Notes: a model not told the origin generated them from the sequence alone. A stretch of 64,000 bases of DNA from Chiloscyllium plagiosum (GCF_004010195.1 NC_057717.1:102793676-102857675); one strand, 5' to 3'. Counted from the stretch's first letter, positions 3,484-61,545 are shown. Made by a program: numbers and translations.

Positions 3484-3915
3484 GCCACCCAACACCTGGA
3501 GGAAGAACATCTCATCTTCCGCCTCGGGATACTCCAACCACATGGCATCAATGTGGATTTCACTAGTTTCCTCATTTCCCCTCCCCCTCCACCTTATCCC
3601 AGATCCAACCCTCCAACTCAGCACTGCCCTCTTGAACTGTCCCACCTATCCATCTTCCTTCCCACCTATCCAGTCCTCCCTTCTCTCCGACCTATCACCA
3701 TCACCGCCCCACCTCCATCTACCTATCGCACTCTCAGCTATTTTCTCCCCAGCCCCATACCCCCTCCCATGTATCTCTCAGCCCCCGTGGGCCTCCCAAC
3801 ATTCCTGATGAAGACATTGATGCTCCTGCTCCTCGGATACTGCCTGACTTGCTGTGCTTTTCCAGCACCACACTCTCAACTCTAATCGCCAGCATCTGCA
3901 GTCCTCCCTTTCTCC
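3484..3915 (+). mobile_element. Penelope-like element 3' end (ORF C-terminus plus terminal repeat, family A)
   Basis: Frame from 3496 reads LEEEHLIFRLGILQPHGINVDFTSF, resembling the end of the GIY-YIG endonuclease region; followed by a C/T-rich UTR and attcCTGATGA, with stem II deleted. Confidence 0.7.
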
Positions 3916-4074
3916 CAGATTTACCCCCCCAGTCAGGGTAGGATTTTCCTGTGGGTTTCCCGGCTTCCGAAACTTGGCCTATAGTGAGCATTAGTAAGCT
4001 GAACTGCAGCTGTCACATGTGAGTGGGTAGCCTGCTCCCTCCTCTGGGTAAATGGCTTTGAGCAGAGAGAGAGC

Positions 4075-4372
4075 TTAGATTAGATTCCTTACAATGTGGA
4101 AACAGGCCCTTCAGCCCAACAAGTCCACACTGACCCTCCAAAGAGTAACTCACGCAGATCCATTTTCCTCTGACTAATACACCTAACACTATGGGCAATT
4201 TAGCGTGGCCAATTCACCTGGTCTGCACATCTTTGGACTGTGGAAGGAAACCGGAGCAAATCCACACAGACACGGGGAGAATGTGCAAACTCCACACAGA
4301 CAGTTATCCAAGGCTGCAATTGAACCTGAGTCTCTGGTGCTGTGAGGCAGCAGTGATAACCACAGAGCCACT
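4075..4372 (-). mobile_element. HE1-type SINE
   Basis: Reverse complement has the tRNA-like head gtggctc.gtggtta.cactgctgcctcacagcacc and an (aatct)n tail. Confidence 0.9.
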
Positions 4373-4592
4373 GAGTGTGAGAGAGAGAGACTTAGGATTA
4401 CCTGACAACTGAAAATTCCTCTCCCTCACCTTCCCCCACCCCACCCACCCCTGCCCCTATTAGTGGCTGAACATACAGTATTTTGCCTCTGATTGCGAAC
4501 GATGGTTCCTTCAAAGGTGACAGTGAGGAAGGCTAGTGAAGGAGGTGACAATAGTCTAACTACCAATGTTGAGAAAGGACAGAGTATTTTAT

Positions 4593-4742
4593 AAGGCAAA
4601 GTGAGGGCTGCAGATGCTGGAAATCAGAGTCTAGATCAGAGTGGTGCTGGAAAAGCACAACAGGTCAGGCAGCATCCGAGGGAGCAGGAGCATTGACATT
4701 TTGGGCAAAAGCCCTTCATCAGGAATCACACCACTCTAATCA
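4593..4742 (-). mobile_element. Penelope-like terminal-repeat insertion (family A) with perfect 12-bp TSD
   Basis: agagtattttat at 4581-4592 and 4743-4754; decayed hammerhead core on the minus strand at 4692-4726. Confidence 0.8.
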
Positions 4743-5693
4743 AGAGTATTTTATGATGCCAGTAATTGAGATGTGGGGGGCAAAGAAGATTACCTGACAG
4801 AGTCACAACGTTCCTATATCCCGTGATAAACTAGTCATTGGCTGGTTGACCCAATGAAAGCAGCAACAACAGTTTGCAATGATACAGCTCCTTCACTGTC
4901 ATTAAACATGCCAATGCAATTCACAAAAGCATCATCTGCAAAATTTGACATCGAGTCATGTGAGGACAGATGAGTAAGCGAAAGCTTGATCACAGAGCTA
5001 GGTTCTAAAGCGCGGTTTAAGGAAGGAAGGTGAGAGAGAGAGAGATGAAAGAGGCAAGTGGTCTAAGGAGGGAGTTGTACAACTTGGGAGCCAGGCACCT
5101 GAAGGCAAAGCCACCAGGGGTGGAGGGATTATTCTCTGAGATGTACAAGAGGGTCGTAGGGCTGGAGGGGGTTACAGAGATAAGGAGGGTGTCTTTACAG
5201 GAGAATTTTTTAAAAACAGAGTTAAGAATATTAAAGATGTCTTTAAAAAGCAGATAATCTGACAGAATGGTCTTGCCATCAAAGGACAGAAGAAGTAATC
5301 AGTGAGCTGGAGGCAAGTGAGGATGGTTTTCTCATCTGTTAATAGGAGCTGTGGCTCTCAGATTGCTTTCCATGCCTTGTCTTGACAGAATAGAGTGATT
5401 GCTTTTCAGGTGTGAGACTGCAGGGCAGTCTGTTAGAAAATTGAAAGAATTTGGCTTGTTACAGGAACTCGACTGATTGGTGTTTGGATTCTGAACCGTG
5501 GGCGCTTTTCGTAATGTGTCAGAAAGCCGATGGAGCTTTTATTGGAAGGAGAAGGTGGCTGACTGTGACTTAAACACCTTCAGTTAAGCTGGGAGACAAA
5601 CTCAATGATTTATTTAGCCCAAGGCCGCCACTTTCTGACACCCACTGGAGTCCAATAGAGAGGGGCTTCCCCAATTACACACTGCTAATTCAG

Positions 5694-5906
5694 ATAAAAA
5701 TCACACAACACCAGGTTATAGTCCAACAGGTTTAATTGGACGCACACTAGGTTTTGGAGCGACGCTCCTTCATCAGGTGATTGTCAGGTGAAGGAGCGTC
5801 GCTGCGAAAGCTAGTGTGCTTCCAATTAAACCTGTTGGACTATAACCTGGTGTTGTGTGATTTTTAACTTTGTACACCCCAGTCCAACACCGGCATCTCC
5901 GAATCA
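5694..5906. mobile_element. fold-back Penelope-like insertion (family B), ~80-bp inverted arms, 11-bp TSD
   Basis: taaaaatcacacaacaccagg...cctggtgttgtgtgattttta; tgctaattcag 5683-5693 / tgctcattcag 5907-5917. Confidence 0.8.
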
Positions 5907-6194
5907 TGCTCATTCAGGGCATCAATAGCAAGCTGCTCCTGCACTTCCCTCCCCCACCCAACTGCCTTACCTCCTGGGAGCACTAACCTATTGTTGGCAT
6001 CAATTCTCTAAGTCCCTGCAAAGATAACAAGTCTACGTTATGTTTCTATGTCTCTTGTCTCACTCTGGGGATGTGTCCAACTCCTGCTGAGATGTATCCT
6101 GGGCAGAGAAAAAAAATATACATGGATCACTCCAATCTTGAGTTATTAATGTCCCTATCTGTTTCTGAGTCTGTTGGAGTTTATCTCCAATAAA

Positions 6195-6497
6195 GGGGGC
6201 TCAGTAGTTAGCACTGCTGCCTCACAGCACCAGGGTCCCAGGTTCAATTCCAGCCTCGGGCGACTGTCTGTGTGGAGTTTGCACGTTCTCCCCGTGTCTG
6301 GGTGGATTTCCTCCGGGTGCTCTGGTTTCCTCCCACAGTCCAAAGATGTGCAGGTCAGGTGAATTAGCCATGCTAACTTGCCCATTGCGTTAGATGCATT
6401 CATCAGGGATAAATGTAGGGAAATGGCTCTGGGTGGGTTACTCTTCAGAGGGTCGGTATGGATTTGTTGGGCCGAAGGGCCTGTTTACACACTCTAT
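6195..6497 (+). mobile_element. HE1-type SINE
   Basis: ggctcagtagttagcactgctgcctcacagcaccagggtcccaggttcaattcc (Pol III A/B boxes). Confidence 0.9.
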
Positions 6498-7592
6498 GGT
6501 GTTTAACCTACCAGTTACTATGAGGTGGGAGGGATGGGTTTGTGAAAGTAAATTGTTGAAACTCTTCTTATCATTTTATTATGATGTGGAGGTGACTGGT
6601 CAGGTGAAGGACCATCATTCCAAAAGCTTGTGGAACTATAACCTGGTATTGGATGATTTCTGACCATATCTTTTTATTGTCAGACTTGCATCACCAAGCA
6701 ATGTCCCCAAAATGCAGAGCACCCAAAAATGGTTGGTGATAGCCAGATAATGAATGGAGCACTTTCATAAATGCAAGGAATTATGGGTATTCCAGCTGCC
6801 ATTGTTGATTGATCAACCCATCAGTCAGGAACTTGGGGAAGTGAATGATTGGGGGCAGGAGGCCATGTAACCTCCTAGATAGGTGACAGAAGCTTGATTT
6901 AAAGCAAAACATCTGAGAGAAGGAAACCTAGGGAGGGAATTCCAGAGTTGAGGATCTGGATATCCGAATTCACTGTTGCCCTGAGTGAAGCTATGGGAAT
7001 TTGGCTAGGGGTGTGGCTGCATTTAAAAAAAAATCAGAATGGAAGAAACACTGAGATCATCAAGGGATTATGATAACGGAAAGTGCTGAAGAAACTCAGT
7101 AGATCTGGCATCGTCAGTGAAACAGGGTTAAGGTTTTGAGTTCGATATAACTCTTCAGCAGAATTGAAAAAGGGTCACTATGGACAGAGGGGGAGGAGAA
7201 GGAAGTGGAATGGGTGATGTCAAAGACCAAATGGTTGCTAATGGTAGTGAAGGGATAATAGAGTTGTGCAAAGAGTGGAAATGAGGGTAGGAAGAGGAGA
7301 GAAATGGTTCATCTGTTAAAGCTTGTCTGACTCCAGGATGTTACAATGAGAGGAAAGAGAAGCGTGGATGACTCTAAAAGAAGGATGAAAATTCTAATAA
7401 TGGAGGAGCCCTCATGGATGAAAGAGCTCAGGGTATTGGCAATGCATTTATAATTAACAGTTGGCCAAACGATTGCATCCCACATTACCGAATAAAGTAA
7501 AATTTGGAAATGTTTCATTATTTTAACAAGCTGTAATGTGTATTAAATAATCACAATTGATTTTTTTAAAAACTCTCTTTTCTGAACAACAG

Positions 7593-16475: not shown

Positions 16476-16606
16476 GGAGAAAGTGAGGACTGCAGACGCT
16501 GGAGATCAGAATCAAAGAGTGTGTCGCTGGAAAAGCGCAGCAGGTCAGGCAGCATCCGAGGAGCAGGAGAATCGACGTTTCAGGCAAGAGCCCTTCTTCA
16601 GGAAAT
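16476..16606 (-). mobile_element. Penelope-like terminal-repeat insertion (family A) with intact minus-strand hammerhead core
   Basis: Reverse complement of 16571-16604 is ttc CTGAAGA a gggc tctt gcct GAAA cg TC gat. Confidence 0.78.
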
Positions 16607-16940: not shown

Positions 16941-17138
16941 ACAAAAACCAAAATTGCTGGTGAAACTCAGTGCGTCTGACAGCGTCCGTGGAGAGAGAGC
17001 AGACCTTTGAGTGAAGGTCACCAGACCCGAAACATTGACTCTGTTTTCCTCTCCACAGATGCTGCTGGACCTACTGAGTTTCTCTACCAATTTCTGCTTT
17101 TTGTTTCCGATTTCCGGCGTCTGCAATTCTTTGTTTCA
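16941..17138. mobile_element. fold-back Penelope-like insertion (family D)
   Basis: aaattgctggtgaaactcag ... ctgagtttctctaccaattt inverted arms; gaaggtcaccagacccGAAAcattgac. Confidence 0.65.
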
Positions 17139-29645: not shown

Positions 29646-30315
29646 GTAAGTCCTCCCGTCAGTTTCTAAAACTGAGCCAATTGCCGTTGATCCAGATGAA
29701 TGTTGTCCCTTTTTCGGTCAGGGTGCTTGGAGCTGGAGAGATGGGGAGGGGGCTGAGAGGGAGCTGTGGGGGGTGCAGAGGCTGCACGTTCCTCCTTCTC
29801 ATGTTAGCAATGGCGTTACGGTGTTACTATTGCTGACCAAGAGACATGTTGTTGAAACTCTTCACCTCCCGCTCATCAGGACACAATCGCAAGAACACCA
29901 AATCTTAAAGGGAACGCCAATTTAGCTTGCATGAGATCTGGTCACAGCAGGGGTAGGCCATTCGGTCCAAGTCTGCCCCACCATTCATGGCTGCTCTGAG
30001 AATCCTCAGATCCACTGACCTGCCTCTCCCCCGGTACCCTTGTTCCTTTTTACTGATTGAAAATCTAGCCGAGCTTTGAATACACTGTTTGACCCAGCCC
30101 TCTGCAATACAGATCCCCACAGACTGACTATCTTCAGGGTAAAACAAAACCTCCTGTTCTCTGTTTTACATGCGCGACCCCTTATCCTGAGTTTATGCCC
30201 TCTCCCACAACCTCTCCACGGGAGTGTAAGTCCTGCTGCAGAGAGCTGGGCCCTGAACTGGGGTTGGAACTTGACATTGAGTGAGTGCAGTCACTCTCTG
30301 GAGGGGAAAATAACA

Positions 30316-30695
30316 ATAAAGAAGTGCGGATGCTTGAAATCAGAAACAAAATCAGAAATCGCTGGAAAAACTCAGCAGCACAGATGGTTTCTCTGCACTG
30401 ATGCTGCCAGATCTGCTGAGTTTTTCCAACAATTTCTGATTTTGCTTCTCTCCCCAAAAGGACCTCATCATCACTGACACTCAAAGATCTTGGGCAAAAG
30501 CCAACGATTGGAGCTCTCTAATTTAGTCAAATTTCCGCCAACCTCCAGCAGTTGAGAATCCAGAACCCCGCAGTGAGCGAAACTGACTGTTCCGAAATAT
30601 TAACTCTGCTTTTTCTATCCACGGACGCTGCCAGACCTGCTGAGTTTCTCCAGCACTCTCTGCTCTCATTTCTGGTTGCCAGCGTCTGCGATATA
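30316..30695. mobile_element. two family-D Penelope-like terminal-repeat remnants (30316-30448 fold-back; 30585-30695)
   Basis: ga(t/c)gctgccaga(t/c)ctgctgagttt motif; inverted arms in the first. Confidence 0.6.
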
Positions 30696-33815: not shown

Positions 33816-33932
33816 TCCTTATGAACCAAAACGTCAATTCTCCTGCTCCTCGGATGCTGCCTGACCTACTGTGCTTTTCCAGCACCACACTCTCGACTCT
33901 GATCTCCAGCATCTGCAGTCCTCACTTTCACT
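33816..33932 (+). mobile_element. family A Penelope-like terminal-repeat insertion with 12-bp TSD
   Basis: atcgttaaccct 33804-33815 / atcattaaccct 33933-33944. Confidence 0.75.
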
Positions 33933-34924
33933 ATCATTAACCCTGTGCCAATGTCCTCCTTTTCCCCAAAACCCTGCACACCATTTCAATCCAAACAACC
34001 ATCCGATACCCACTCAAGTGCCTCAATTCAACCCACCTCCACCACATTCCCAGGCAGTGAGGACCACCTCCTAACTACTCACCTTGTTAAAGAATGTGGC
34101 TTTTGTTTCACGCCACCCTTGCTCCTTTTGCACATCACTTTAAATCTACGCCTTCTCATTCTCATCCCTTTTATGAGTGGAAACTGCTTCTCCCTCTCTC
34201 ATCTCTCCAGCCCCAGTGATGATCTTGAAAACCACAATCCCCTCCCAGCTGCCTTCACTCTGAGGAAGAACAGACTCGATTTCTTCAACTAATCCACATC
34301 GCTGGAACCATTCTGGTAAATCGCTTCGGCACTCTCTCCAGTGCTGCCACATCATTCCCACATCTTTCCCTAAACTGTACACAATACTTTGGAAACTGGT
34401 TCAGTGTTGTTACCCATCTTTGGCACTGATTGTGAGGTCTGTTAGTCTGTCAATGCCATCTGCAAGCCTTAGATCATCAGACGTAAAAATCCCCAGAAGG
34501 GACTTGATTTAATTTCCTCCACTCTTTCGCCAAACTGTCTGCTAGTTTGTTTTTTGACCTCCCTACCCTTTCTGATCGAATAGAAAGAATCCATTATTTT
34601 TGAAATGGCTGTTCCATGGCCTGGTTTGACAAGTAATCCCATGCATTATAATTGTCCATGCATTTTGATGTATACTCATGAAGAACTTCAATATGAGTTT
34701 CAGCTTTCTGCTTGACATGATGTAGTTGAAAACATAGCCAAAACAGGGAGCCCAGCCGAGGAGGTCAGGCAGCATCCGAGGAGCAGGAAAATCGACGTTA
34801 CGGACAAAAGCACTTCATCCTGCTTTCTCCTAGCCCAGGCTAGAAAGCAAGTTCTAGGCTTCAAAGGTCGAACTCCACAGAATAACGCATAGTTACTTCT
34901 TTTCTGCTGGTTGATTAGATAAGG

Positions 34925-36776: not shown

Positions 36777-37000
36777 GAAAGTTGAAAAGATTGCTGGAAA
36801 AGCTCAGCAGGTCTGGCAGTATCTGTGAGGAGAAATCAGAGTTAATGTTTCAGTTCCAGTGACCCTTCCTCAGAACCAGTGACTGACCTGAAATGTTAAC
36901 TCTGATTTCTCCTCACAGATGCTGCCAGACCTGCTGAGCTTTTCCAGCAACTTGTGTTTTTGTTTCTGATTTACGGCATTTGCAGTTGTTTTGGTTATTA
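36777..37000. mobile_element. fold-back Penelope-like insertion (family D) with perfect 13-bp TSD
   Basis: ctgggcgagattt at 36764-36776 and 37001-37013; reverse complement of 36841-36876 is gtt CTGAGGA agggtcactggaact GAAA ca TT aac. Confidence 0.8.
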
Positions 37001-38722: not shown

Positions 38723-39222
38723 NNNNNNNNNNNNNNNNNNNNNNNNNNNNNNNNNNNNNNNNNNNNNNNNNNNNNNNNNNNNNNNNNNNNNNNNNNNNNN
38801 NNNNNNNNNNNNNNNNNNNNNNNNNNNNNNNNNNNNNNNNNNNNNNNNNNNNNNNNNNNNNNNNNNNNNNNNNNNNNNNNNNNNNNNNNNNNNNNNNNNN
38901 NNNNNNNNNNNNNNNNNNNNNNNNNNNNNNNNNNNNNNNNNNNNNNNNNNNNNNNNNNNNNNNNNNNNNNNNNNNNNNNNNNNNNNNNNNNNNNNNNNNN
39001 NNNNNNNNNNNNNNNNNNNNNNNNNNNNNNNNNNNNNNNNNNNNNNNNNNNNNNNNNNNNNNNNNNNNNNNNNNNNNNNNNNNNNNNNNNNNNNNNNNNN
39101 NNNNNNNNNNNNNNNNNNNNNNNNNNNNNNNNNNNNNNNNNNNNNNNNNNNNNNNNNNNNNNNNNNNNNNNNNNNNNNNNNNNNNNNNNNNNNNNNNNNN
39201 NNNNNNNNNNNNNNNNNNNNNN
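38723..39222. other. 500-N scaffold gap (probably a placeholder size)
   Basis: Exactly 500 N. Confidence 0.98.
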
Positions 39223-41399: not shown

Positions 41400-42270
41400 G
41401 AATTAAAGTGATTCTGGGGATGGTGGGACTGACTTATGAGGAGGGATTGACTAGGTTAAGATTGTTTTCCCTGGAGCTCAGACAAATGAGGGGAGAATCT
41501 CATAGAGACTTATAAAGTTCTAACAGGACTAGGCAGGGTAGATAGAAGGAGGACGTTCCCAATGTTGGGTGCATCCAGACCCAGGGGTCACAGGATTCAG
41601 GGTGGACCATTTAGGACAGAAATGAGGAGACATTTTTTCACCCAATGAGTGGTGAGCCTGTGGAATTCATTACCACAGGAAGGAGTTGATGCCAAAATAT
41701 TGAATGTATTCAAGAGGTGGCTAGATATAGCACTTGGGGGGAATGGGATCGAAGGTTATGTGGAGAAAACAGGATTAAGCTGTTGGGTTGGACAGGGCAA
41801 AAGTGAGGACTGAAGATGCTGGAAACCAGAGTTTAGATCAGAGTGGTGCTGGAAAAGCACAGCAGGTCAGGCAGCATCCGAGTGAACACTTCAACCCCAG
41901 GGCATCAATGTGAACTTCCAGCAGTGTTCTCATGACCTGTCCTTCCTGCCAATTCCTCTTCCCACCTATCTTCTCCACCCTCCTCTCTGACCTATCACCT
42001 TCATCCCCACCCCCATTCACCTATTGTACTCTTTGCTACCTTCTCCCCAGCCTGGAGGCTTCCTGCCTCTATTCCTGATGAAGGGCTTTTGCCCGAAACT
42101 TTGATTTTCCTGCTCCTTGGATGCTGCCTGACCTGCTGTGCTTTTCCAGCACCACTCTGATCTAAACTATTGGATTGGACAATCAGCCATGACCGTGATG
42201 AATGGCAGAGCAGGTTCGAAGGGCCGAATGGCCTCCTTCTGCTCCTATCCTCTATTTCTACGTTTCTGTA
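41400..42270 (+). mobile_element. CR1 LINE 3' fragment hosting a nested Penelope-like insertion (41795-42166)
   Basis: CR1 tail resumes at 42182; TSD ctgttgggttggaca 41780-41794 / ctattggattggaca 42167-42181; insert has a TLQPQGINVNF remnant and CTGATGA-agggcttttgccc-GAAA at 42075-42098. Confidence 0.78.
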
Positions 42271-43622
42271 TAAAATAGAGCAGGAAATTGCACAAGCTCT
42301 TAGCCTGAGGATGTGGGGGTTGAGAAGGCAGTAGTTTGGCAAGTCTGTTATATCCGCAATGGGAAGGATGGACAGCTCACATGTGTATCATAGTTGTACA
42401 GGATCAAGTTGGAGCCCACCTGGTGATTGTATCCAGGTTTGCTCCCACAGCCCTCAGGAACCTTCGAAGGAGGTTTGCACAGCTTCATCAGGTACTGAGA
42501 GGGAAAGGGTTATGTTTGCACTCCTAGGTATCATCAATGATGCTCATGTTCCCTGGAGTTCAGGAAATGGTGGGGAGATCTAATCATCGTGTTTAAAATG
42601 ATGTAAAGGTTTGATGGAGGTCAGTAGAGAGAAACTGCGGTGCAGAGTTGAATGGGGGAATGTGGGAGGGGCAAGGGTTTGGTCTAGCCCAGAAAAAGGG
42701 AGTGTGTGGTTGGGGATGAGAAGCTTACAAATCAAGCCGGATCTTTGAGAGGTGATGTCAGGAAGCAACTCTTCGCACCAAAGACAGTGAGACCTTTAAC
42801 ACTTTACCCTAAAGAGCTGTTGATGTTTGGAACAGTAGGATAAGGGACCCAATGGCAAATTTAAGAATGGGTGGATAGATTTTTGATGGGTGGGGATATG
42901 AAAGTGGGTATCTGGCAGATCTGCCATGATAGGTGTGAATGACAGAACAGTCTTCAGGAACTGAATTGACCTTCTCCTTTCCCATTTTAACCCCATGGGC
43001 GCCTGTGAACTTCCTGCAGGAGCCATATTGTTTCGATTGAGTTTGGTGGTAGGGTTCAGAGGTCAGGTGGTGCTTGACATTTTGATCACCTGATGAAGGA
43101 AGCATGGGAAGAGGAGCTCATTAAGTCCCTTGAGGCTGTTCCACCATTCAGTGAGTTTATGACTGGCTCTTCCCTCAGCTGCCTTCAGCTTTGACTATTT
43201 AGCACAGTATCGCTGCCTTCCTGTGGAGCTTTAAGGCTGGTTTCAGCACAGTTAATGAAGTACAGGTGACATTTCATCCCATAGCCTCAGTTACGTATTT
43301 CTGGGAAGGTTAAAAAGGGCCCTTAAGATAATTGAAATCAACAATTAGAATAACTCCTGATATTTGGATCAGTCTATTCCTCCCAGAGACCCACTGACTC
43401 CCAGTTTGATTCTGGGCTCCAGACCAGGTGTCAAACTCTGAATAAGTGAGAAATCTTTCAGCATCTTAACATCAAATGGAAAGCTCAGTAGCAAGGGCGA
43501 TGCTCCCAGTGTCCTGATCACGATCCATCTCTCAGTCAGAATCACAAACCGAGTCTATGTCACAGTTTGCACATAGTGGTTCATTGAATGAAAAGGGACA
43601 TAGTAATGCTGGTTCATTCCTC

Positions 43623-43741
43623 TGGTGAAGAGTCATCTAGTTTGCTCTCTCTCCATGGATGCTGCCTGACCCGCTGTGCTGTCCAGCAATTGTTGTTTTC
43701 AGCACGGATTCCAACATCAGCAGTAATTCGCTCTGACATTG
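43623..43741 (+). mobile_element. Penelope-like terminal-repeat remnant with 16-bp TSD
   Basis: tgctggttcattcctc 43607-43622 / tgttggttcattcctc 43742-43757; gatgctgcctgacccgctgtg motif. Confidence 0.65.
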
Positions 43742-45142: not shown

Positions 45143-45361
45143 TGAAAGTGAGGACTGCAGATGCTGGAGATCGGAGTCAAGATTAGAGTGGTGCTGGAAA
45201 AGCACAGCAGGTCAGGCAGCGTCCAGGGAGCAGGAAAAATCGATGTTTTGGGCAAAAGCCCTTCATCAGGAATGATGATGGGCTAATGCCTGAAACGTCG
45301 ATTTTCCTGCTCCTCGGATGCTGCCTGACCTGCTGTGCTTTCCCAGCACCACTAATCTTGA
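45143..45361. mobile_element. fold-back family A Penelope-like insertion with perfect 14-bp TSD
   Basis: ctcaatgcacagag at 45129-45142 and 45362-45375; back-to-back hammerhead-like cores at 45239-45303. Confidence 0.85.
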
Positions 45362-46598: not shown

Positions 46599-48349
46599 GT
46601 AAGTGACCCTGCTTTCTCATTTCCCTTCCTGTTGTACCTGAGGCTATCCTTTGATTCATAGTTGGCAAAAGGAGCGCGCGTTACGTACATAACTTTGTTT
46701 GATTGAGTCTGGCTCAGTGGGCAGGGAGACACCTCAGGCCCTCGTGAAGTGTATCCTGGAGTGTTTGTCCACTGTCAGTGTTACAAATACAGGTCCCTTT
46801 AAGGAAGGACAGCTCCTGCGTTGGTTGAGAGCAGGTGTCGCAGTTTAAGATCCGGAGCTGTGGCGTTGGAGTGGTAGCATCCCTATCTCTGAGATGGGAG
46901 CCCTGGCCCCAAACCTCACCTACTCCTGAGGTGTGTAATCACATCTCTGAGCAGTTGATTAGAAAATTCAAGAGCTGTGATTTTCCAGCAACACTCTCAA
47001 TGTGGGGGATGGAGTGATCTCTCTGCTTCCCTGACTCCTCTCTGATGTCATCCCCTCCCTCTTTCCCTACCTTTCTGTGACACTTTGTTGTCTCTGCATT
47101 ACCTCAATGGGCCATGCTTATAAATTCTTCTTTTGATTATAAATGTGTGATTTGATGATGATTTAAAAAAATATATATCCTGAGGCATGTAATAACATCC
47201 CTGGACAGACAAAAAGGGGAGAAGAGAGAGTTTCTACTGACAGGCCCCGGTTCAAGTCCCTCCTGCCCCAGGGGTGTTGGCTTCTGTATAGGGAACAGTT
47301 CCAAAAGGGAACTGTGGAAACTGGTGTTTGAGCTAAACTGTCAGTTTATAATAAAACCCTGTGTGTATCTCTCAAAGTTTCTTTGCTGCCTGATTGAGTC
47401 TGATAAAAACCACCTACCCCTCTCCAGATAGTTCACGTGCTCAGAGCTGGTTAGAAGGATGTAGGGGAAAGTGAGGACTGCAGATGCTGAAGATCAGGAG
47501 GCAGCCTCATGATTAAGGGAAGGGAGAAATGTTTATCAGGAAATGGTGGCTTTGGGCTAAGTTAACCTTCTTGATGCCGTGTTCCTTTATTTGAGGAAGA
47601 AAGGAGGACAGAGGGAGGTGGGTGAGCTCCGCAGCTTTAAGGACATGGTGAAAGCATAAGGGAAGAAAGTAGTACAACTTCACCAGAGTACGAATTTGGA
47701 AATATCTCCCCACCTTGAAGATGCTGAGGTTTTATTAAATTGCTTAGACAGGATCCAGACATGTTTCTGTCTGGCCGGAGTTTGATTTCAACTTGGACAT
47801 CACCAAACCTGTTCCCTAAATATGCACCCCACCCCGATTCTCACCCAGTTATCCCTTCATTGATATATAACCATCACCTCTGCCCTAGTCCCTTGGTCTT
47901 GGATGTCCCTGCCACACTCTACTGAGTGATTGAGTTGAAGGGTAAGTTGAAAAGTGGGATCAGATTTTGTAAGGTTAAGATTTTATAGTAGATTGGGTGA
48001 AGTTGAAGACTTGCTCTGACCTAACTGAGTGGCAAAAGTGACTTGAGGACTTGAATGGCCTCCTTTCGTCCTTGTTTCTCTACACTGCAGGGAAAGTTGT
48101 ACACAGCCTTTCAAATTCTTTTTGGATATAAGAGTTGCACTGGTGCGTTTCTGAGCTCCACAATGAATGTCCATGCAGCGCTGTCCTCCCTGAGAGATTC
48201 CAGTGTTTACTTTGGGGCTGTATTAACTGGCACGTGTCTGAAGTGGTATGGAGAACAGCAAAATGGGCAACACAGCAATCCACCAAGTTGTCTACTGCTT
48301 TGCTTATCTCACTTCCTGTGTGGAAAGGTAATTCCCTCGTTCTGGAGGA

Positions 48350-49445
48350 TTGAGAGTAAAATCGAGGCTGACACTCTCCTTGCAGTGCTGAGGGAGAGCT
48401 GCACTGCTGTGGGTGCCATCTTTCAGATTAAATGTCCAACGCCGTGTGCCCCCTAAGGTGCATTATTGTAAGAAGAGCAAAGGAATTCTCCATGGTTCTG
48501 CAGAAGGGTCGCTGAGCTCAAAACGTTAATTCTGTTTCTCTCACCACAGATGCTGCCAGACCTGCTGAGTTTCTCCAGCACTTTCTGTTTTTGTTTGACA
48601 TTTCCCTGGCATTCAGATCAATACTGATGTCTTAACCAATGTGCACTAAATGTTATATTGCTAGCTATCCATTTACTGAAATCAGAATTGGTCTCTTTTC
48701 TGCAATTGTTTTATGTCTGTTTCATCGTTCAATGGAAACGCCAGTCTCCCCTTCCTCAACCTGAGAATAGCCAGTCCTTTTATATTTTCTAATCAACTTG
48801 TTCAGAGACGTCACAGCACATTTCTGCAGCAGGTAGAACTTGAACCCAGACCACCTGGCTCAGAGGTAGGGACACTACTAGTGTCCCACTGATAGCAAGC
48901 TGTTAAAAAAAATTCTCAAAGTAAATATTAGATGCTCTCTAGAATCCCTACAGTGTGGAAACAGGCCATTTGGTCCAACAAATCCACACTGACCCTCCAA
49001 AGAGTAACCCACCCAGACCCATTCCCCAACCCCTATTACTCTCCACTTATCCCCATCTAATGCACCTAACCTGAACACCATGGACAATTTAGCACTGCCA
49101 ATTCACCTATCCTGCACATCTTAGGATTGTGGGAGGAAACCCCCACAGACAGTCACCCGAGGCTGGAATTGAACCTGAGTCCCTGGTGCTGCGAGGCAGC
49201 AGTGCTAATCACTGAGCCACCGTGCTGCCCTGGTGTCTCTGAAACAGATTCCCATTCAACCTTAAACGGACCATCAGCAACAGTGTTGCCACTAAGAATA
49301 TTTATCTCCTCTGTACCATATTGGCTGTTTGTGGGATCTTGCTGTGTACAAATTGGCTGCTACGTCTGCAACATTACAATCATGAAATGTTAAGTGCTTA
49401 GGGACATCCTCAGATGGTGACAGGTGCAATAGAAAGGAAAGTCTA
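48350..49445 (+). mobile_element. DeuSINE remnant with nested family-D remnant (48495-48595) and minus-strand HE1 SINE (48940-49229)
   Basis: gctgacact..gcagtgctgagggagagctgcactg Deu domain; tail gggatcttgctgtgtacaaattggctgc at 49332. Confidence 0.6.
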
Positions 49446-50944: not shown

Positions 50945-53900
50945 CAGTCCTGCTGTCTATAGTATGTATTCCCAGGACAGTATTCTGCTGTCTACAGTAA
51001 CCAATCCCAGTACAGGATCCTGCTGTCTACAATAACTAATCCCAGTGCAGTATCCTGCTGTCTACAATAACTAATCCCAGTGCAGTATCCTGCTGTCTAC
51101 AGTATCCAATCCCAGTACAGTTACCTGCCGTCCACAGTGGCCAATCCCAGTACAGTATCCTGCTGTCTACAGTATCCAATCCCAGTGCAGTATCCTGATG
51201 TCTACTATGTCCAATCGCAGTGAGTATCCTGTTGTCAACAGTGACTAGACCCAGTACAGTATCCTGTTGTCTCCAGTGATCAATCCCAGTACAGTATCCT
51301 GCTGTCTACAGTAACCAATCCCAGTACATTATCCTGCTGCCTACAGTATCCAATCCCCGTGCAGTATCCTGCTGTCCACAGTAATCCAACCCCAGTACAG
51401 TGTACTGCTGTCTACAATAACCGATCCCAGTACAGTATCCTGCTGTCTACAGTATGCAATCAGTGCAGTATCCTGTTGTCTACAATAACCAATCCCAGAA
51501 CAGTGTACTGCTGTCTACAGTAACCAATCCCAGTACAGTATCCTGCTGTCTACAGTATGCAATCCCAGTACAGTATCCTGCTGTCTACAGTATCCAATCC
51601 CAGTACAGTGTACTGCTGTCTACAGTAACCAATCCCACTGCAGTATCCTGCTGTCTACAGTATCCAATCCCAGTACAGTATCCTGTTGTCTACAGTGACC
51701 AACACCAGTACATTATCTAGCTGTCTACAGTGACCAATCCCAGTGCAGTATCTGCTGTCCCCAGTGAGCAATCCCAGTACATTATCCTGCTGCCTACAGT
51801 ATCCAATCACCGTGCAGTATCCTGCTGTCTACAGTATCCCATCCCAGTACAGTGTACTGCTGCCTACAGTAACCGATCCCAGTACAGTATCCTGCTGTCT
51901 ACAGTATGCAATCAGTGCAGTATCTTGTTGTCTACAGTAACCAATCCCTGTGCTGTATTCTGATGTCTACAGTAAGCAATCCCAGTACAATATCCTGCTG
52001 TCTACAGTATCCAATCCCAGTGCAGTTTCCTGCTGTCTACAGTATCCAATTCCAGTACAGTGTACTGCTGTCTACAGTAACCAATCCCACTGCAGTATCC
52101 TGCTGTCTACAGTATCCAATCACCGTGCAGTATCCTGCTGTCTACAGTATCCAATCCCAGTACAGTGTACTGCTGTCTACAGTAACCAATCCCAGTACAT
52201 TATCCTGCTGCCTACAGTATCCAATCACCGTGCAGTATCCTGCTGCCTACAGTAACCGATCCCAGTACAGTATCCTGCTGTCTACAGTATCCAATCCCAG
52301 TACAGTGTACTGCTGTCTACAGTAACCAATCCCAGTACATTATCCTGCTGCCTACAGTATCCAATCACCGTGCAGTATCCTGCTGCCTACAAGTACTGTA
52401 TCTTGCTGTCTACAGTATCCAATCCCAGTACAGTGTACTGCTGTCTACAGTAACCAATCCCAGTACAGTATCCTGTCTACAGTATCCAATCCCAGTACAG
52501 TATCCTGTCTACAGTATCCAATCCCAGTACAGTATCCTGCTGTCCACAGTAACCAATCCCAATACAGTATCCTGCTGCCTACAGTAACCAATCCCAGTAC
52601 AGTATCCTGTTGTCTACAGTGACCAATCCCAGTACATTATCTAGCAGTCTACAGTGACCAATCCCTGTACAGTATCTTGCTGTCTACAGTAACCAATCCC
52701 AGGACAGTATCCTGCTGTCTACAGTAACCAATCCCAGGACAGTATCCTGGTGTTTACAGTAACCAATCCCAGTGCAGTATCCTGCTGTCTACAGTATCCA
52801 ATCCCAGTTCTGTATCCTGCTATCGACAGTATCCATTCCCACTGCAGTATACTGCTGTCTACAGTATCCAATCCCAATACAGTATCCTGCTGTCTACAGT
52901 AACCAATCCCAGTGCAGTATCCTGCTGTCGACAGTAACCAATCCCAGTACAGTATCCAGTTGTCTACAGTGACCAACACCAGTACATTATCTAGCTGTCT
53001 ACAGTGACCAATCCCAGTACAGTATCCTGCTGTCCACAGTAACCAACCCCAATACAGTATCCTGCTGTCCACAGTAACCAACCCCAATACAGTATCCTAC
53101 TGTCTACAGTAACCAATCCCAGTACAGTATCCTGCTGCCTACAGTAATGAATCCCAATACAGTATCCTGCTGTCTACAGTATTCAATCCCAGTACAGTTT
53201 CCTGCCGTCTACAGTGACCAATCCCAGTGCAGTATCCTGCTGTCTACAGTATCCAATCCCAGTACAGCATCCTGCAGTCTACAGTATCCAATCCCTGTGC
53301 AGTCTCCTGCTGTCTACAGTAACCAATCCCAGTACAGTATCCTGTTGTCTACAGTGACCAATACCAATACATTATCCAGCTGTCTACAGTGACCAGTCCC
53401 AGTACAGTATCCTGTTATCTACAGTAACCAATCCCTGGACACTATCCTGCTGTCTACAGTATCCAATCCCAGGACAGTATCAGCTGTCTACAGTATCCAA
53501 TCCCAGTGTAGTATCCTACTGTCAACAATATCCAATCCCAGTACAGTATCCTGCTGTCTACTTTGTCCAATCCCAGTGAGTATCCTGTTGTCAACAGTGA
53601 CCAGACTCAGTACAGTATCCTGTTGTCTCCAGTGACCAATCCCAGTGCAGTATCCTGCTGTCCACAGTAACCAATTCCCAGTACATTATCCTACTGCCTA
53701 CAGTATCCAATCCCCGTACAGTATCCTGCTGTCCACAGTAATCCAACCACAGTACAGTTACCTGCTGTCTCCAGTATCCAACCCCAGTACAGCATCCTGC
53801 TGTCTACAGTAACCAACCACTGTGCAGTATCCTGCTGTTTACAGTAACCAATCTCTGTGCAGTATCCTGCTGTCTACAGTATCCAATCCCAGTGCAGTAT

Positions 53901-55825
53901 CCTGTTTGTCTGCAGTAACCAATCCCAGTACAGTATCCTGTTGTCTACAGTATCCAATCCCAGTGCAGTATCCTGCTGTCTACAGTATCCAATCCCAGTG
54001 CAGTATCCTGCTGTCTACGGTATCCAATCTCAGTGCAGTATCCTGTTGTCTGCAGTAACCAATCCCAGTGCTGTATCCTGTTGTCTACAGTAGGCAATGC
54101 CAGTACTGTATCTTGCTGTCTACATTATCCAATCCCAGTACAGTGTACTGCTGTTCAGTTATGCAATCCCAGTGCAGTATCCTGCTGTCTACAGTAACCC
54201 ATCCCAGTACAGTATCCTGCTCTCTACATTAACCAACACCAATACCGTATCCTGCTGTCTGCTGTATCCAATCCCAGTGCAGTATCCTGCTGTCTGCAGT
54301 AACCAATGCCTGTACAGTATCATGCTGTCTACAGTATCCAATCCGCGTACAGTATCCTGCTGTTTACAGTAATCAACCCCAGTGCAGTATCCTGCTGTGT
54401 ACAGTAACCAACCCCAGTGCAGTATCCTGCTATCTACCTTATCAAATCCCAGTACAGTGTCCTGCTGTCTACAGTATCCAATCCCAGTACTGTATCCTGC
54501 TGTCTACAGTATCCAATCCCAGTACAGTATCCTGCTGTCCACAGTAACTAATCCCATACAGTATCCTGCTGTCTATAGTATGCAATACCCGTGCAGTATC
54601 CTGTTGTCTACAGTAACCAATCCCAGTACAGTATCCTGCTGTCTACAGTACCCAACCCCAGTGCAGTATCCTGCTCTCGACAGTAACCAATCCCATTGCA
54701 GTATCCTGCTGTCTACCTTATCCAATCCTAGTACATTATCCTGCTGTCTACAGTATCCATTCCCAGTACAGTATCCTGTTGTCTACAATCACCAATCCCA
54801 ATGTGGTAACCGATGTCTACAGTAATCAATCCCAGTACAGTATCCTGCTGTCTATAGTAACCAATCCCAGTGCAGTATCCTGCTGTCTACAGTAACCAAT
54901 CCCAGTGCAGTATCCTGCTGTGTACAGTAACCAATCCCAGTGCAGTGCCCTGCTGTCTACCTTATCCAATCCCAGTACAGTGGCCTGCTGTCTACAGTAT
55001 CCAATCCCAGTGCAATATCCTGCTGCCTACAGTATCCAATCCCTGTACAGTATCCTGTTGTCTACAATCACCAATCCCAATGTGGTATCCGCTGTCTCCA
55101 GTAACCCATCCCAGTACAGTATCCTGCTGTCTACAATATCCAATCCCAGTACAGTATCCTGCTGTCTACAATAACCAATCCCAGTGCAGTATCCTGCTGT
55201 CTACAGTAACCAATACCAGTGCAGTACCCTGCTGTTTACAGTAACCAATCCCAGTACAGCATCCTGATGTCTACAGTAACCAATCCCAGTGCAGTATCCT
55301 GCTGTCTACAGTAACCAATCCCAGTACCGCATCCTGCTGTTTACAGTAACCAATCTGAGTGTATTTTCCTGCTGTCCAGAGTACCCAATCCCAATGCAGT
55401 GTCCTGTTGTTTACAGTAACCAATCCTAGTGCATTATCTGCTGTCTACAGTGACCAATACCAACCTGTTATCCTGCTGTCATCATTCACCAGTCCCAGTG
55501 CAGTATCCTGAGTTTTACATTGGCCAATCCCAGTGCAGTATTCTCTAGTCTACAGTAACCAATCCTAACACAAAGTTAAAAATCACACAACACAAGGTTA
55601 TAGTCCAACAGGTTTAATTGGAAGCACTAGCTTTCGGAATGATGATCCTTCATCACTCCGAAAGCTAGTGCTTCCAATTAAACCTGTTGGACTATAACCT
55701 GGTGTTGTGATTTTTAACTTTGTACACCCCAGGCCAACACCAGCATCTCCAAATCAATCCTAACACAGTGTCCTTCTGTCTACAGTAACCAATCCTAACA
55801 CAGTGTCCTTCTGTCTACAGTAACC
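50945..55825. repeat. 35-bp tandem satellite (cagtatcctgctgtctacagtaaccaatcccagta), ~4.9 kb, roughly 135 units
   Basis: Seen directly; ORF translations cycle through three frames every 105 bp. Confidence 0.97.
55573..55754. mobile_element. fold-back family B Penelope-like insertion inside the satellite, 13-bp TSD
   Basis: caatcctaacaca 55560-55572 / 55755-55767; same arms as 5694-5906. Confidence 0.8.
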
Positions 55826-56299: not shown

Positions 56300-56680
56300 C
56301 AGTTCTGGAATCCATACTTTTGGAAGGATATGATGTCATTGAACAGAATGCACAGAAGATTTACCAGGATGTTGCCTGGGCTGGAGAGCTTTGGTAATGA
56401 AGAGAGATTGGACAGACTGGACTTGGTTTCCTTAGAGCAGAGTTGGGGGGGGGCATGATTGAGACATATAAAATTATGAGGGGCATAGACAGGGTAGACA
56501 GAAAGAAGCTTTTCCCCTTGATAGAGGGATCAGTTGTTGAGGGCATGGATTGAATGTAAGGTGCAGGGGGAATAGCGGGGGGATGTGAGGCGAAATCTTT
56601 TCACTCAGAAGGCAGTCTGGAACTTGCTGGCTATAAAGATGGGAGAGGCAGAATGCCTCAAACATTCAAGAAGTACCTGT
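56300..56680 (+). mobile_element. CR1 LINE 3' fragment
   Basis: agatttaccaggatgttgcctggg...tataaaattatgaggggcatagacagggtagac. Confidence 0.8.
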
Positions 56681-57521
56681 ATACACTTTTGCACAAGTCA
56701 AAAGTTTTAGATGTACTTTTTATGGTTAAATTTATGGAGTCAACTATTACATGGATTTTACTCTTCAGGGGCTGAAATTCACACTACAGTCCAAAATACC
56801 ATATCGTTAGCAGAAGCCCAATTGACCTCTAAATGAATTAAAACAAAACACAATAAATTACAGTAATATGACTGTATTCCATGAGGGCTACAGGGGAGCT
56901 CAGCTGAGCTGCACACAAGGTGAGGTTGTCACCTGACTCTGACCTGATGCGTCTTAAACGTTTGCACCAACTTGGCGTTAATTGTACATCAAAACACATA
57001 ATAGCATGAAAGTAAAAATTCATTTCCTCATTGTAACATCGTACAGGATAATACCTTGACTCACAAATGTTGGCCTGTCATCTGTGAAGAACTAGGGTTG
57101 ACCTTTACATGAGATTGATTTTTACTTGAGTATATACGGTATTTAGATGTGCACTTGTAATGCCAAGGCATGAAAGGCCAAGTGTTGGAAAGTGGGACGA
57201 GAACGGTTAGGTGACTGGTGTAAACTTGATGGGCCAAAGGGCCTTTATAACTTTATCTTGCACTCAAATGTTGTGCGAGTCAAAAACCCCTCAGCACCAC
57301 ATCCCTTTCTGTTTCCACTATGCGTAGAGAATATGGCACTGATCTCTACACCACACTCATGCACCTAGGGGAATAGCGAAGACATATTGAAGGGAAGCTG
57401 GATAAAATGAGAGGGGAAATCAATAGAACGTGATGACAAATAGGTGAGATCAAGAGGAGAGGAGCAAGATTGGATGAAGTTTAAAGTAAAGTGTTGGCTA
57501 GCTAAATAGTCTGTATTTGTG

Positions 57522-57793
57522 TAGTGGCTCAATGGTTAGCACTGCTGCCTCGCAGTACTAGGGACTAGGGTTCGATTCCAGACTTGGACAGACTATCTGC
57601 ATGGAGTTTGCACATTCTCCCCTTGTCTGCGTGGGTTTGCTCCGGTTTCCTTCCACAGTCCAAGATGTGCAGGTCAGGTGAATTGGCCATGCTTAATTGC
57701 CCATAGCGATAGGTGCATTAGTGGGTCTGGGTGGGTTACTCTTTAGAGGGTCGGTATGGACTTGTTGGACCAAAGGGCCTGTTTCTAATCTAA
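57522..57793 (+). mobile_element. HE1-type SINE
   Basis: Head and tail as in the other copies. Confidence 0.88.
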
Positions 57794-58012
57794 GTTTGAT
57801 AGAATTTTTTGTAAAACTCAAACAATGTTATCGTGATCCTTTTCAAGAAATGAAAATGTACTGGTCAGTTGGATCTTGGCATGAATTTTTCATTCAGGGG
57901 TTCATTTCTGTCGTAATTACTGAGAGTTTATAAGGAATGGTAACCCCCCGGCTGATGCTTAAGGTCTCACAGTCGTGAACAGAATTAATCATCTCCTCTT
58001 CTGTCCATTTAG

Positions 58013-58066
58013 GGTCCTTCAGGACGCCCAGGTGGTATGGGCTCTCCAGGATCAGTGGGTGAAAAG
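58013..58066 (+). CDS. COL5A3: collagen exon 54 bp: GPSGRPGGMGSPGSVGEK
   Basis: atttag|GGT...AAG|gtgagt. Confidence 0.95.
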
Positions 58067-58391
58067 GTGAGTGTTTCTTCTTTGTGCTTGTGGCCTGAGC
58101 AGGATTATTCGGAAATCACAAAGCATCTAATAAACTACCCGCTGATACCCTGAAGGTACCTCCCCCCTGCCAGCCCCTGAATGATGTGGGCATTGGCAGG
58201 AACATTGGGACAACCAAGTGAGATGGTTGGTAAGGAGCTTCCCGAAGTCAAGAGGAAAGTGTCCCATTTTGAATGACTGTTATTTTCTTGCTGGTGAGCA
58301 GCGAGAGATCTACTGGCATGGACTTGTTCTTGCGTCATATCATCTCACTGATATGCATCACTGGACTAGCAATCCCATCACCAAGTTAACA

Positions 58392-58722
58392 CAGTGGATC
58401 TGTGGTTAGCACCGCTGCCTCACTGCGCCAGGGACCCTGGGTTCGATTCCAGCCTCGGGACGCTTGTGTGGAGTTTGCATGTTCTTCCCATCTCTGTGTG
58501 GGTGTGCTCTGGTTTTCTCCCACAGTCAAAACATGTGCAGGCTAGGGGTAGGTTGGCCCTGCTAAATTGTTCATAGTGTTCAGGGATGTATGAGTTAGCC
58601 GTGGGAAATGTGAGGTCAAGGGGATTGGGTAAGGGGCAGATCTGGGTGGGATACCCTTTCGAGGTTCGGTGAGGACTCAATGGGCCAAAATGGCCTGCTT
58701 CCACACTGTAGGGATTCTATAA
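58392..58722 (+). mobile_element. HE1-type SINE
   Basis: Head and tail as in the other copies. Confidence 0.85.
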
Positions 58723-58885
58723 TTCTCTACAGGAAGCTCTTCAGGTTACAGTTACCCATTTGGGAAGAGAACCTGCCATCCACATTGAAGGTTTTTGTGT
58801 GCACTCGTTCTGGAATGAGACGTTACATGGACTGATTGAGGTCATCTCGGCTCAGTGTAACCGTTGTGTTTGACCTTCCTTACAG

Positions 58886-58939
58886 GGAGAGACAGGAGAA
58901 GCTGGAGACCCAGGCACACCGGGAGAACCAGGTATCGCT
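58886..58939 (+). CDS. COL5A3: collagen exon 54 bp: GETGEAGDPGTPGEPGIA
   Basis: ttacag|GGA...GCT|gtgagt. Confidence 0.95.
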
Positions 58940-59084
58940 GTGAGTACCCAATATTGTCTTAATTCCATTGAAACGCCATTGAAGGTTGTCCACCCATTCC
59001 TACAGTTTCCCTTGCCCCCGAATTGGCCCCCCTCAGCCTGATTGGCAGCAAACCATCTGACAATCTTGCCCATTCCTTGAGGGA

Positions 59085-59578
59085 ACACGATGTGAAACTT
59101 GAAAGGGTTCAGAAAAGATTTACAAGGATGATGCCAGAGATGGAGGATGTTAGAGATAGGGAGAGGCTGAACAGGCTGGGACTGTTTTCCCTGGAGCGTC
59201 AGAGGCTGAGGGGTGACCTTAGAGAGGTTTATAAAATCATGAGGGGCATGGATAGGATAAATAGGCAAGGTCTTTACCCTGGAGTGAGGGAGTCCAGAAC
59301 TAGAAGGTATAGGTTCAGGATGAGATTGGAAAGATATAAAAAGGACCTAAGGGGCAACTTTTTCATGCAGAGGGTGGTGCATGTATGGAATGAGCTGCCA
59401 GAGGAAGTGGTGGAGTCGGGTATAATTACAACATTTAAAAGGCATCTGGACGAGTAGGAAGAGTTTAGAGGGATATGGGCCAAATGTTGGCAAATGGGAC
59501 TAGATTCAGTTAAGATTTCTGGACAGCATGGATGGTTGGACCACAAGATCTGTTTCCATGCTGTACAGTTCTATAACT
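59085..59578 (+). mobile_element. CR1/HER1 LINE 3' end
   Basis: ORF 59023..59457 LERVQKRFTRMMP..LGLFSLERQRLRGDLREVYKIMRG..WNELPEEVVE. Confidence 0.92.
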
Positions 59579-59850
59579 AAGTTTGCAAAAAAAACACTAG
59601 ATGTGGATTTGCAGCTATCTCCCCTACCACATGGTCAGTGATTTCTCCACTCAGGGCAAAAGACGTCACATTGAAACAGTGACGGATTGATGCTAATGGG
59701 AATGCTCTGTATTGAGATGGGAATAGATAGGTGACCATTTGGAACATCAAACCAGAATCTTGATTCAGAGATTGTTTGGAATCCCAAGTTCAGGTGTGAA
59801 ATAACATTGTCCTGCTCTTGTTCTTGAAGGCTCAGGATGGATAAAATTGC

Positions 59851-60138
59851 TCACGAGTTTTGAGAAGATTTGTAGATTGGCTTGAGTTTCTGGATGTAAG
59901 TTTGCTTGCTGAGCTGGAAGGTTCATTTTCAGACGTTTCATTGCCATACTCAGTAACCTCATCAGTGAGGAAATGACATCAGCAACACAGGAAATGACAT
60001 CAGCAATCCAAGGAAACCTAAACACACAAGTAGAAAACAGGCCATAACACCAGTGCTTCACCGAAGGCTCACTGATGATGTTATGATGATGAAACGTCTG
60101 AAAATGAGCCTTCCAGCTCAACGAGCAAACTGACATCC
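59851..60138. mobile_element. fold-back Penelope-like insertion (family C) with perfect 13-bp TSD and two hammerhead-like cores
   Basis: tggataaaattgc 59838-59850 / 60139-60151; cores at 59929-59968 (-) and 60069-60101 (+). Confidence 0.82.
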
Positions 60139-61511: not shown

Positions 61512-61545
61512 ACTCTTTCTCTCTCTGTGTCTCTGTCTCTATCTG

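Follow-up and report, generated by a model that had tools for sequence, protein, structure and literature searches.

Probable Penelope-like element insertions with minimal hammerhead motifs in a 64-kb window of the Chiloscyllium plagiosum genome

Insertions in the window

A stretch of 64,000 nucleotides (nt) of the Chiloscyllium plagiosum genome (GCF_004010195.1 NC_057717.1:102793676-102857675), hereafter the window, was analyzed for repeats that carry hammerhead ribozyme motifs and belong to Penelope-like elements (PLEs). Canonical PLEs, which carry an endonuclease, have probably left 17 or more dead insertions in the window; these form three groups (A with D, B, and C) and are all present as 3'-terminal modules with a minimal hammerhead motif (Table 1). 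The unit of insertion would be a 3'-terminal RNA module, in which a minimal type I motif is followed by 40-64 or 81-103 nt to one of two start sites of the reverse transcriptase (RT), referred to here as the short and the long site.

Self-comparison of the window showed a common tail block in A and D with 88-94% identity; B matched only B, and C only C. A fuzzy search with the common A/D tail found 15 places, of which 8 are arms of family A and the rest are D-like. The original prediction had counted at least four hammerhead families: three sequence groups (A with D, B, and C) stand, while A and D are related via their common tail and the ribozyme of B fails. The second C arm at 60065-60103 (+), as well as further A and D-like copies, had been absent from it. 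The tail word TCCAGCATCTGCAG also occurs with one mismatch each at 47478-47491 (-) and 61631-61644 (-), outside the listed insertions, and both matches probably represent pieces of additional A-type insertions of which only the tail is left.

Direct repeats of 11-19 bp flank seven head-to-head insertions (three of family A, B1, B2, the C pair, and the D pair at 36780-37000) as well as three solo copies (3483-3915, 6581-6666, and 33816-33932). Two more inverted pairs, 16943-17126 and 30342-30449, occurred without a verified target-site duplication (TSD). The tails point outward in all seven pairs, and one arm is 33-41 nt longer than its partner in every case. This one-sided extension amounts to ~36 nt in A (45143-45361), 37 nt in B1, 33 nt in B2, 41 nt in C, and 39 nt in D, and the other two A pairs likewise combine a long with a short end. 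Counted from the predicted cleavage site, the short end is reached after 62, 54-55, 40, and 64 nt in A, B, C, and D, respectively, and the long end after 97-99, 89-93, 81, and 103 nt.

Table 1. Penelope-like insertions identified in the window. Positions are counted from the first nucleotide of the window. ORF, open reading frame; UTR, untranslated region; box, the CTGANGA segment of the hammerhead core.
Element	Position	Strand	Features
A solo	3483-3915	+	5'-truncated within ORF; ORF end 3484-3579, pyrimidine-rich 3' UTR, hammerhead remnant without stem II (box from 3805), long tail; direct repeat 3472-3487/3916-3931
A head-to-head pair	4598-4742	-	Main arm from 3-4 nt before C3 to long tail; hammerhead 4690-4728 (G12->A, CG->TG; covariance model E 6e-9); inverted mini-arm of 14-17 nt ends at short site; direct repeat 4581-4597/4743-4759
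B1 head-to-head pair	5694-5906	.	Arms 5692-5772 and 5789-5869, 16 nt between; 37-nt tail right side only; right-arm box CAGGTGA; TSD 5683-5693/5907-5917
B3 solo	6581-6666	+	Box CAGGTGA, G12->A, ends at short site; direct repeat 6569-6580/6667-6678 (12 bp)
D-like copy with upstream UTR	7070-7200	-	Box CTGCTGA; AAAAC replaces GAAAC, core dead; covariance model 7125-7167, E 0.0025, non-seed sequence
A solo	16476-16606	-	Hammerhead 16569-16606: CTGAAGA, extra A, 4-bp stem II, GAAA, ACGT, C17, 2-bp helix I; covariance model E 6e-10
D-like inverted pair	16943-17126	.	Plus arm: hammerhead remnant 17002-17041, C3->T, 1-nt box insertion; E 2e-5; no TSD found
D-like tails, inverted arrangements	30326-30689	.	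Without intact hammerhead
A solo	33816-33932	+	Starts 2 nt before C3; stem II deleted; long tail at end; direct repeat 33804-33815/33933-33944
A fragment	34759-34827	-	Starts within box; covariance model E 1e-6
D head-to-head pair	36780-37000	.	Minus arm: hammerhead 36839-36879 (CTGAGGA, 1 stem II mismatch, ACAT); plus arm starts in stem II; long tail right side only; TSD 36764-36779/37001-37016
A head-to-head pair	41795-42162	.	Left arm 41795-41884 (-), tail only, long site; right arm 41885-42162 (+), ORF-end remnant 41886-41918, hammerhead 42069-42107 (E 6e-11), short site; direct repeat 41776-41794/42163-42181, 84%
A/D-like copy, decayed	43613-43723	+	Found by shared-tail search
A head-to-head pair	45143-45361	.	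Joined at hammerhead 5' edge; hammerheads 45237-45275 (-) and 45267-45304 (+); left arm long site, right arm short site; TSD 14 bp, 100% identical
D-like copy	48492-48625	+	Box CTGCAGA, G12->A, ACGT kept; E 9e-7
B2 head-to-head pair	55573-55756	.	Arms start in stem II; 33-nt tail right side only; inside 35-bp minisatellite
C head-to-head pair	59851-60138	.	Hammerheads 59927-59971 (-) and 60065-60103 (+); 41-nt tail left side only; TSD 13 bp, 100% identical

Insertions of PLEs are known for a high degree of 5' truncation, an adjoining inverted and 5'-truncated copy, and a tail of 30 to 40 bp that often occurs at one end only (PMC8557442). The optional tail corresponds to the stretch between two internal RT start sites, and both DNA strands are cut and extended (PMC11167929). 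Based on this anatomy, B, C, and D were taken as PLE insertions, although no open reading frame (ORF) is attached to them in the window.

The arms of the hairpins are 88-97% complementary, and Rfam matches below threshold occurred to mir-9 at 55607-55688 (53.7 bits, gathering score 58.6) and to MIR1886 at 36824-36915. Both would suit B, C, and D being foldback DNA transposons (miniature inverted-repeat transposable elements, MITEs) or microRNA-like hairpin genes with incidental hammerhead words. This explanation is very improbable and was rejected because of the asymmetry of the hairpins noted above, the existence of solo non-palindromic copies (B3 and the D-like copies at 7125 and 48492), and the PLE tail which D has in common with family A, itself linked to an ORF. 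Further points against it are the differing centres of B1 and B2, the variable TSD length of 11 to 19 bp, and that no Rfam match reaches its gathering score.

Link to Penelope-like open reading frames

The Penelope-like ORF end that had been proposed at 3496 and ~41885 was recovered as an ORF end at 3484-3579 and a remnant at 41886-41918. When nine shark PLE-like proteins were searched against the window with tblastn, only this ORF end and the remnant of 11 residues were found. The last 32 codons (3484-3579) matched residues 422-453 of the protein P0013 with 75% identity (E 3e-10). The peptide of 3469-3579 had 10 short relatives among 1.84 billion representatives, the best with an E value of 1e-7, and one of these, P0011, led to seven longer proteins, including the uncharacterized P0013 of Rhincodon typus (whale shark, 469 amino acids) and P0014 of Stegostoma tigrinum (zebra shark, 522 amino acids). 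In P0013, the RVT_1 match (residues 1-121) scored 22.7 bits and fell short of its cut-off (29.6), and the GIY-YIG match (residues 355-432) scored 23.2 bits and exceeded its own (22.6). The linker between the two domains contains a C-x4-C-x2-C motif. A word-indexed protein search with the ORF end of 41 amino acids gave no candidate, and Pfam identified neither RT nor GIY-YIG in 23 ORFs of 115-249 amino acids, taken from 65 ORFs listed at a length of at least 110 amino acids.

In both A loci with ORF remains, the motif is located on the ORF strand (plus; 3484-3579 with 3805, and 41886-41918 with 42075), and the hammerhead follows ~160-250 nt downstream of the ORF end. In zebra shark, the same box, stem II, GAAA, and CGTC may underlie the read-through end of P0014 (residues LMKGLRPKRQ), with whose codons they are compatible. 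The central proposal that these motifs are shark Penelope hammerheads gains support from the ORF link for A and from PLE-type insertion in A, B, C, and D.

Hammerhead motifs compared with chance

The layout was searched on both strands of the window with a descriptor of our own, consisting, in this order, of CTGANGA, 0-1 extra nt, stem II, GAAA, NN, T followed by any base but G, and helix I; stem II had to have at least 4 pairs (1 mismatch allowed) and helix I at least 2 bp. Five sites were identified, compared to a mean of 0.02 and a maximum of 1 in 100 dinucleotide shuffles, which agrees with the hammerhead layout as it had been proposed. They comprise the A copies at 16571 and 42072, both C arms, and D at 36839-36879. 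Since the five sites fall in three repeat groups, they represent 2-3 independent motif events and not five, which is still far above chance.

That the motifs are chance matches, picked by eye from repeat-rich DNA, is barely conceivable. A looser descriptor with a helix III of 0-30 nt gave four matches compared to 0.37 expected, with a shuffle maximum of four, and the layout in B did arise by chance at a junction. The five minimal sites against 0.02 in shuffles contradict this explanation, however, and in each family the motif is found at its own fixed distance from the insertion ends.

State of the core in families A, C, and D

The A motif, placed at 16571-16604 in the original prediction, was found on the minus strand at 16569-16606 and is the best-preserved hammerhead of the window. 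Those placed at 59929-59968 (C) and 36841-36876 (D) were likewise found on the minus strand, at 59927-59971 and 36839-36879, respectively. Eight A copies reach the hammerhead region, and five of them have the full box of 7 nt, two begin inside the box, and one carries a mutated box together with the deletion of stem II. Position 12 is G in four and A in three of the seven A copies that keep it. The palindrome at positions 15.2-16.2 reads ACGT in 4/7 A copies and ACAT, ATGT, and ACTT in the remaining three. In the majority state over the eight copies, every core position is intact. As the departures occur mostly at CpG sites (G12 and ACGT), which is expected of decay after insertion, the family state would be an intact core and the copies its relics. 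Judged by their sequence, the copies in the window are neutral dead relics, most of them hit by CpG decay in G12 or in the palindrome. When two A copies were folded together, the palindrome region paired between them, a result that is uninformative on catalysis.

Both C arms keep the whole core. Among the four D-like copies that reach the hammerhead region, box and GAAA are intact only in 36839-36879, and the copies at 48492 and 7125 agree in having C as base 6 and A as base 12. The A majority, the two C arms, and a single D copy thus keep CUGANGA, GAAA, U16.1, and H17, whereas B departs from them. The family states of B, C, and D rest on 2-5 arms each. The extra nt that had been described between A9 and G10.1 is present and unpaired in all families, as A in A, B, and D and as G or T in the two C arms. 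The expectation of an ACGT or AGCT palindrome holds for A and C and for 3/5 B arms (AGCT), and ACGT is also kept in the D-like copy at 48492. It does not hold for the D pair at 36841, in which the arms read ACAT and ATGT, the two products of CpG decay.

The surroundings of the C pair were noted as well. An open frame with 31 residues of Gly-X-Y triplets stretches over 60206-60300 (+), and a weak Pfam Collagen match occurs further on (61276-61689, +); the window is apparently located within a gene for collagen. The C insertion ends 68 nt before the exon-like Gly-X-Y stretch. Assembly gaps (runs of N) are located at 1519-1788 (270 bases) and 38723-39222 (500 bases). A CT-rich simple repeat, which translates to Ser/Leu in three frames, flanks the first of them.

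Family B and the proposed fifth family

The ribozyme of family B had been reconstructed from 5745-5816 and 55625-55670, but no single arm holds this layout, and the reconstruction turned out to be a chimera across the junction of a palindrome. In B1, the CTGATGA of the minus strand is the complement of 5770-5776, composed of three bases of the left arm and four bases of the centre. B3 and the right arm of B1 have CAGGTGA and 14 nt upstream of it in common, so the B1 centre belongs to the right arm, and CTGATGA and the CAC of helix I are consequently products of the junction. In both B arms that reach the box, which stem from two separate insertions, the box reads CAGGTGA and is changed at positions 4 and 6. 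These positions are essential to the hammerhead in classical mutational work. Both are also fixed in the published descriptor.

The rest of the layout is found in B to varying degrees. An extra A is present, and one B1 arm has a 5-bp stem II with G10.1-C11.1. GAAA and AGCT occur in 3/5 arms each, and T followed by non-G at 16.1 and 17 in 5/5. Family B is best called a degenerate hammerhead, as far as its sequence suggests.

The loop of stem II in B2 (55640-55660) and B3 (6610-6625) reads TCATCA and is thus complementary to TGATGA within the box. A head-to-head pair thereby makes box-like words on the opposite strand, and the TGATGA words of B2 are indeed the complement of the loop in the opposite arm. 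Palindromic insertions can in this way fake an intact ribozyme on the opposite strand, which is a trap for descriptor searches. The flanking repeat of B2 is ambiguous between a TSD and a satellite unit, because B2 interrupts a minisatellite. This 35-bp repeat covers 51000-55565 and 55755-55825 with ~130 units and a higher-order period of 105 bp; it was scanned from 51000 and may begin earlier. It accounts for the lack of stops in the ORFs of the stretch 51000-55825 and for the strong GC skew there.

A possible fifth, decayed family had been suggested at 29851-29882. This candidate was dropped, since CTGATGA is present there without a GAAA box in place, without a PLE tail, and without a second copy in the window.

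Stem pairing and covariation

In an alignment of nine A and D copies, 79% of stem cells were paired, compared to 7-51% when the partners were slid. Two pairs changed on both sides: C-G is replaced by U-A in pair 1.1/2.1 and likewise in pair four of stem II. The covariation score was matched or exceeded in 27/500 shuffles. The stem covariation that had been described across families is therefore moderate within the A/D set and does not extend to B and C, whose flanks do not align, so that the layout there represents independent compliance and not strict covariation. The pair 10.1-11.1 is GC in five, GU in three, and unpaired in one of the nine copies; by family, GC is seen in A and B.

A second complementarity was observed in the A/D 3' modules, e.g., 45143-45241 (-) and 36898-37000 (+), where the block GGATGCTG after the hammerhead can pair with the block CAGCATCTG in the one-sided tail and encloses a small hairpin and the short RT start site. 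In the nine copies, 94% of the cells of this stem were paired, compared to 29-53% when slid. Its covariation is weak, with one compensatory pair and a score that 38/500 shuffles reach. Family B has a similar pair of complementary blocks by eye.

Weighing of the interpretation

Several results weigh against reading the insertions as PLE modules with a hammerhead. The whole descriptor is passed by only 2/8 A copies, 2/2 C arms (one insertion event), 1/4 D-like copies, and 0/5 B arms. Rfam release 15 gave no match at gathering thresholds, and none of the 14 matches at E values up to 10 was a hammerhead, so that this check of the original prediction came out negative. The 14 matches are hairpin look-alikes over palindromes, and the Rfam hammerhead models presumably require a hairpin at helix III. 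A covariance model derived from the A and D copies recovered a B arm only at an E value of 0.084 and no C arm among its 19 matches, and accordingly provides no support across families. In the D pair and the two C arms, U takes the place of C as the partner of G10.1; C11.1-G12 forms a CpG, and C-to-T decay may be the cause of the GU pair. Helix I comprises only 2 bp in A, 3 bp in C, and 4 bp in D, and folding of the whole unit of 130 nt was not superior to that of shuffled sequences (z +1.59 and -1.11). Only solos or inverted pairs occur in the window, with no head-to-tail (tandem) pair as in a pseudo-long terminal repeat (pseudo-LTR); this is expected of 5'-truncated dead copies and says little on the master elements. 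Coding sequence for RT was not found within the window, and of the proposed linkage to RT and GIY-YIG the part that stands is the ORF end, whose relatives in whale shark and zebra shark show matches to both domains. Finally, insertion of the anole element in vitro did not require its hammerhead, and reads ending at the cut site were absent (PMC11167929).

Part of these results would fit a motif of hammerhead descent that is no longer a ribozyme in these shark lineages and is kept or tolerated in a folded leader bound by the RT. B and two D-like copies are changed at positions fixed in the descriptor, with CAGGTGA common to both box-reaching B arms and the bases C (position 6) and A (position 12) common to D-like 7125 and 48492. 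Helix I is short, conservation is highest in the tail blocks and not in the hammerhead, and hammerhead mutants did not affect insertion in vitro (PMC11167929). Naiad PLEs also thrive without hammerheads (PMC8557442). This explanation is unlikely, though, given that the A majority over eight copies keeps all core positions, that the A departures are of the CpG kind seen in neutral decay after insertion, that C keeps the whole core in both arms, and that the palindrome and the extra nt recur in groups whose flanks do not align.

Under the preferred reading as dead PLE modules, the master elements would carry the motif in a pseudo-LTR or leader (PMC4209133, PMC6765202, and PMC11167929). Lacking a helix III of its own, the motif would be active only when two copies pair via the ACGU or AGCU palindrome, probably aided by the protein of the element, and would cut after GUC in A and C or after GUU in D, as follows from the same sources. 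A transcript of an inverted pair contains one sense and one antisense copy and hence forms no dimer, and its cleavage is not expected.

The 5' ends of the copies tend to lie at the edge of the hammerhead. Five of the eight A arms that were found via the tail start between 6 nt before and 2 nt after C3 (4726, 16601-16606, 33816, and 45272/45273), two reach upstream into the ORF end, and one starts downstream. The sequence CTATTCC at the C3 region of the long copy 42072 (42069-42075) resembles the consensus of an initiator element. A long end was paired with a short end in 7/7 pairs. As a tentative possibility, the stretch from hammerhead to RT start would serve as a small template complete in itself, and the 5' edge of the hammerhead would mark where an RNA truly begins. 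Transcripts would start ~4 nt before the hammerhead, and internal initiation 60-100 nt downstream would yield leader-only complementary DNAs of ~95-135 nt on both DNA strands at once, one per RT start site. In a bolder version, the palindromic helix III would hold two template RNAs in a dimeric ribonucleoprotein. If the leader-template reading is true, shark genomes are a natural record of a two-site, two-strand mechanism so far seen only in vitro and for one lizard element. The geometry of two ends and the pile-up of 5' ends are the most interesting residue of this analysis and worth a genome-wide look. With at least 17 insertions in 64 kb, a dense set bounded by TSDs, and a clean geometry of two ends and one tail, the window could help to test the internal-initiation model in vivo.

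Comparison with known systems

Minimal dimer-type hammerheads were published in 2014 and are apparently a universal feature of canonical PLEs, of which the window provides examples from shark families. They are known in PLEs of fishes, amphibians, and reptiles (PMC4209133). PLEs have been listed in the whale shark (PMC8455134) and were present in all 23 vertebrate genomes compared, including the elephant shark (PMC4350176). A literature search on shark Penelope hammerheads found none, and "shark" was met only as a motif shape; a word of 16 nt from the B repeat was not found in full-text literature either. Metagenome scans with the B flank and the A/D tail gave 0 and then 4 matches, and the latter were judged to be chance matches on non-shark, apparently bacterial contigs. 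This analysis documents the motif for PLE families of elasmobranchs.

The motifs closely resemble the minimal hammerhead ribozymes of metazoan PLE pseudo-LTRs (Cervera and de la Pena 2014, PMC4209133). Type I topology, the lack of a helix III hairpin, the palindromic 15.2-16.2 segment, an unpaired nt between A9 and 10.1, and a short helix I are alike, and so are the many consensus families per genome, the predominance of single truncated copies, and pairs of motifs on opposite strands 100-700 bp apart. In contrast, that work covers Xena, Poseidon, and Neptune of fishes, coelacanth, Xenopus, and reptiles, and no shark is named in the first half of its text, while the supplementary species list may include cartilaginous fishes. 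Helix I measures 2-4 bp here compared to 4-5 bp in Schistosoma and 2 bp in D. virilis, and helix II 4-6 bp compared to 7-8 bp.

The Poseidon element of Anolis carolinensis, PAc (Frangieh et al. 2024, PMC11167929), also has its hammerhead upstream of two internal RT start sites, located 30-40 nt apart and resulting in the optional tail. Its cut site is 85-92 nt from the RT start, compared to 81-103 nt to the long end here, and both strands are cut and extended, which fits the head-to-head pairs of the window. PAc differs in belonging to the Penelope/Poseidon clade, whereas the additional Cys motif known from Neptune/Nematis is found in the shark relatives of the ORF, and in the overlap of its hammerhead with the ORF start, whereas an early stop follows the motif in the copies seen here. 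According to PMC8557442, the PLEs of the Neptune clade in fishes have one ORF, in which GIY-YIG follows RT at the C-terminus, and a CX2-5CxxC linker motif, which is the mark of Neptune and Nematis and was seen in P0013. A placement of the shark elements in the Neptune/Nematis clade would follow from this one Cys motif only.

Non-LTR retrozymes are likewise short non-coding units with a type I hammerhead and are related to PLE pseudo-LTRs (PMC7229834). In a recent preprint (Li et al. 2026, doi 10.64898/2026.07.22.740005), retrozymes are present in 1/1 sampled Chondrichthyes and dispersed monomers are described. By definition, retrozymes form tandem arrays able to give circular RNAs, whereas the insertions of the window are solos and inverted pairs.

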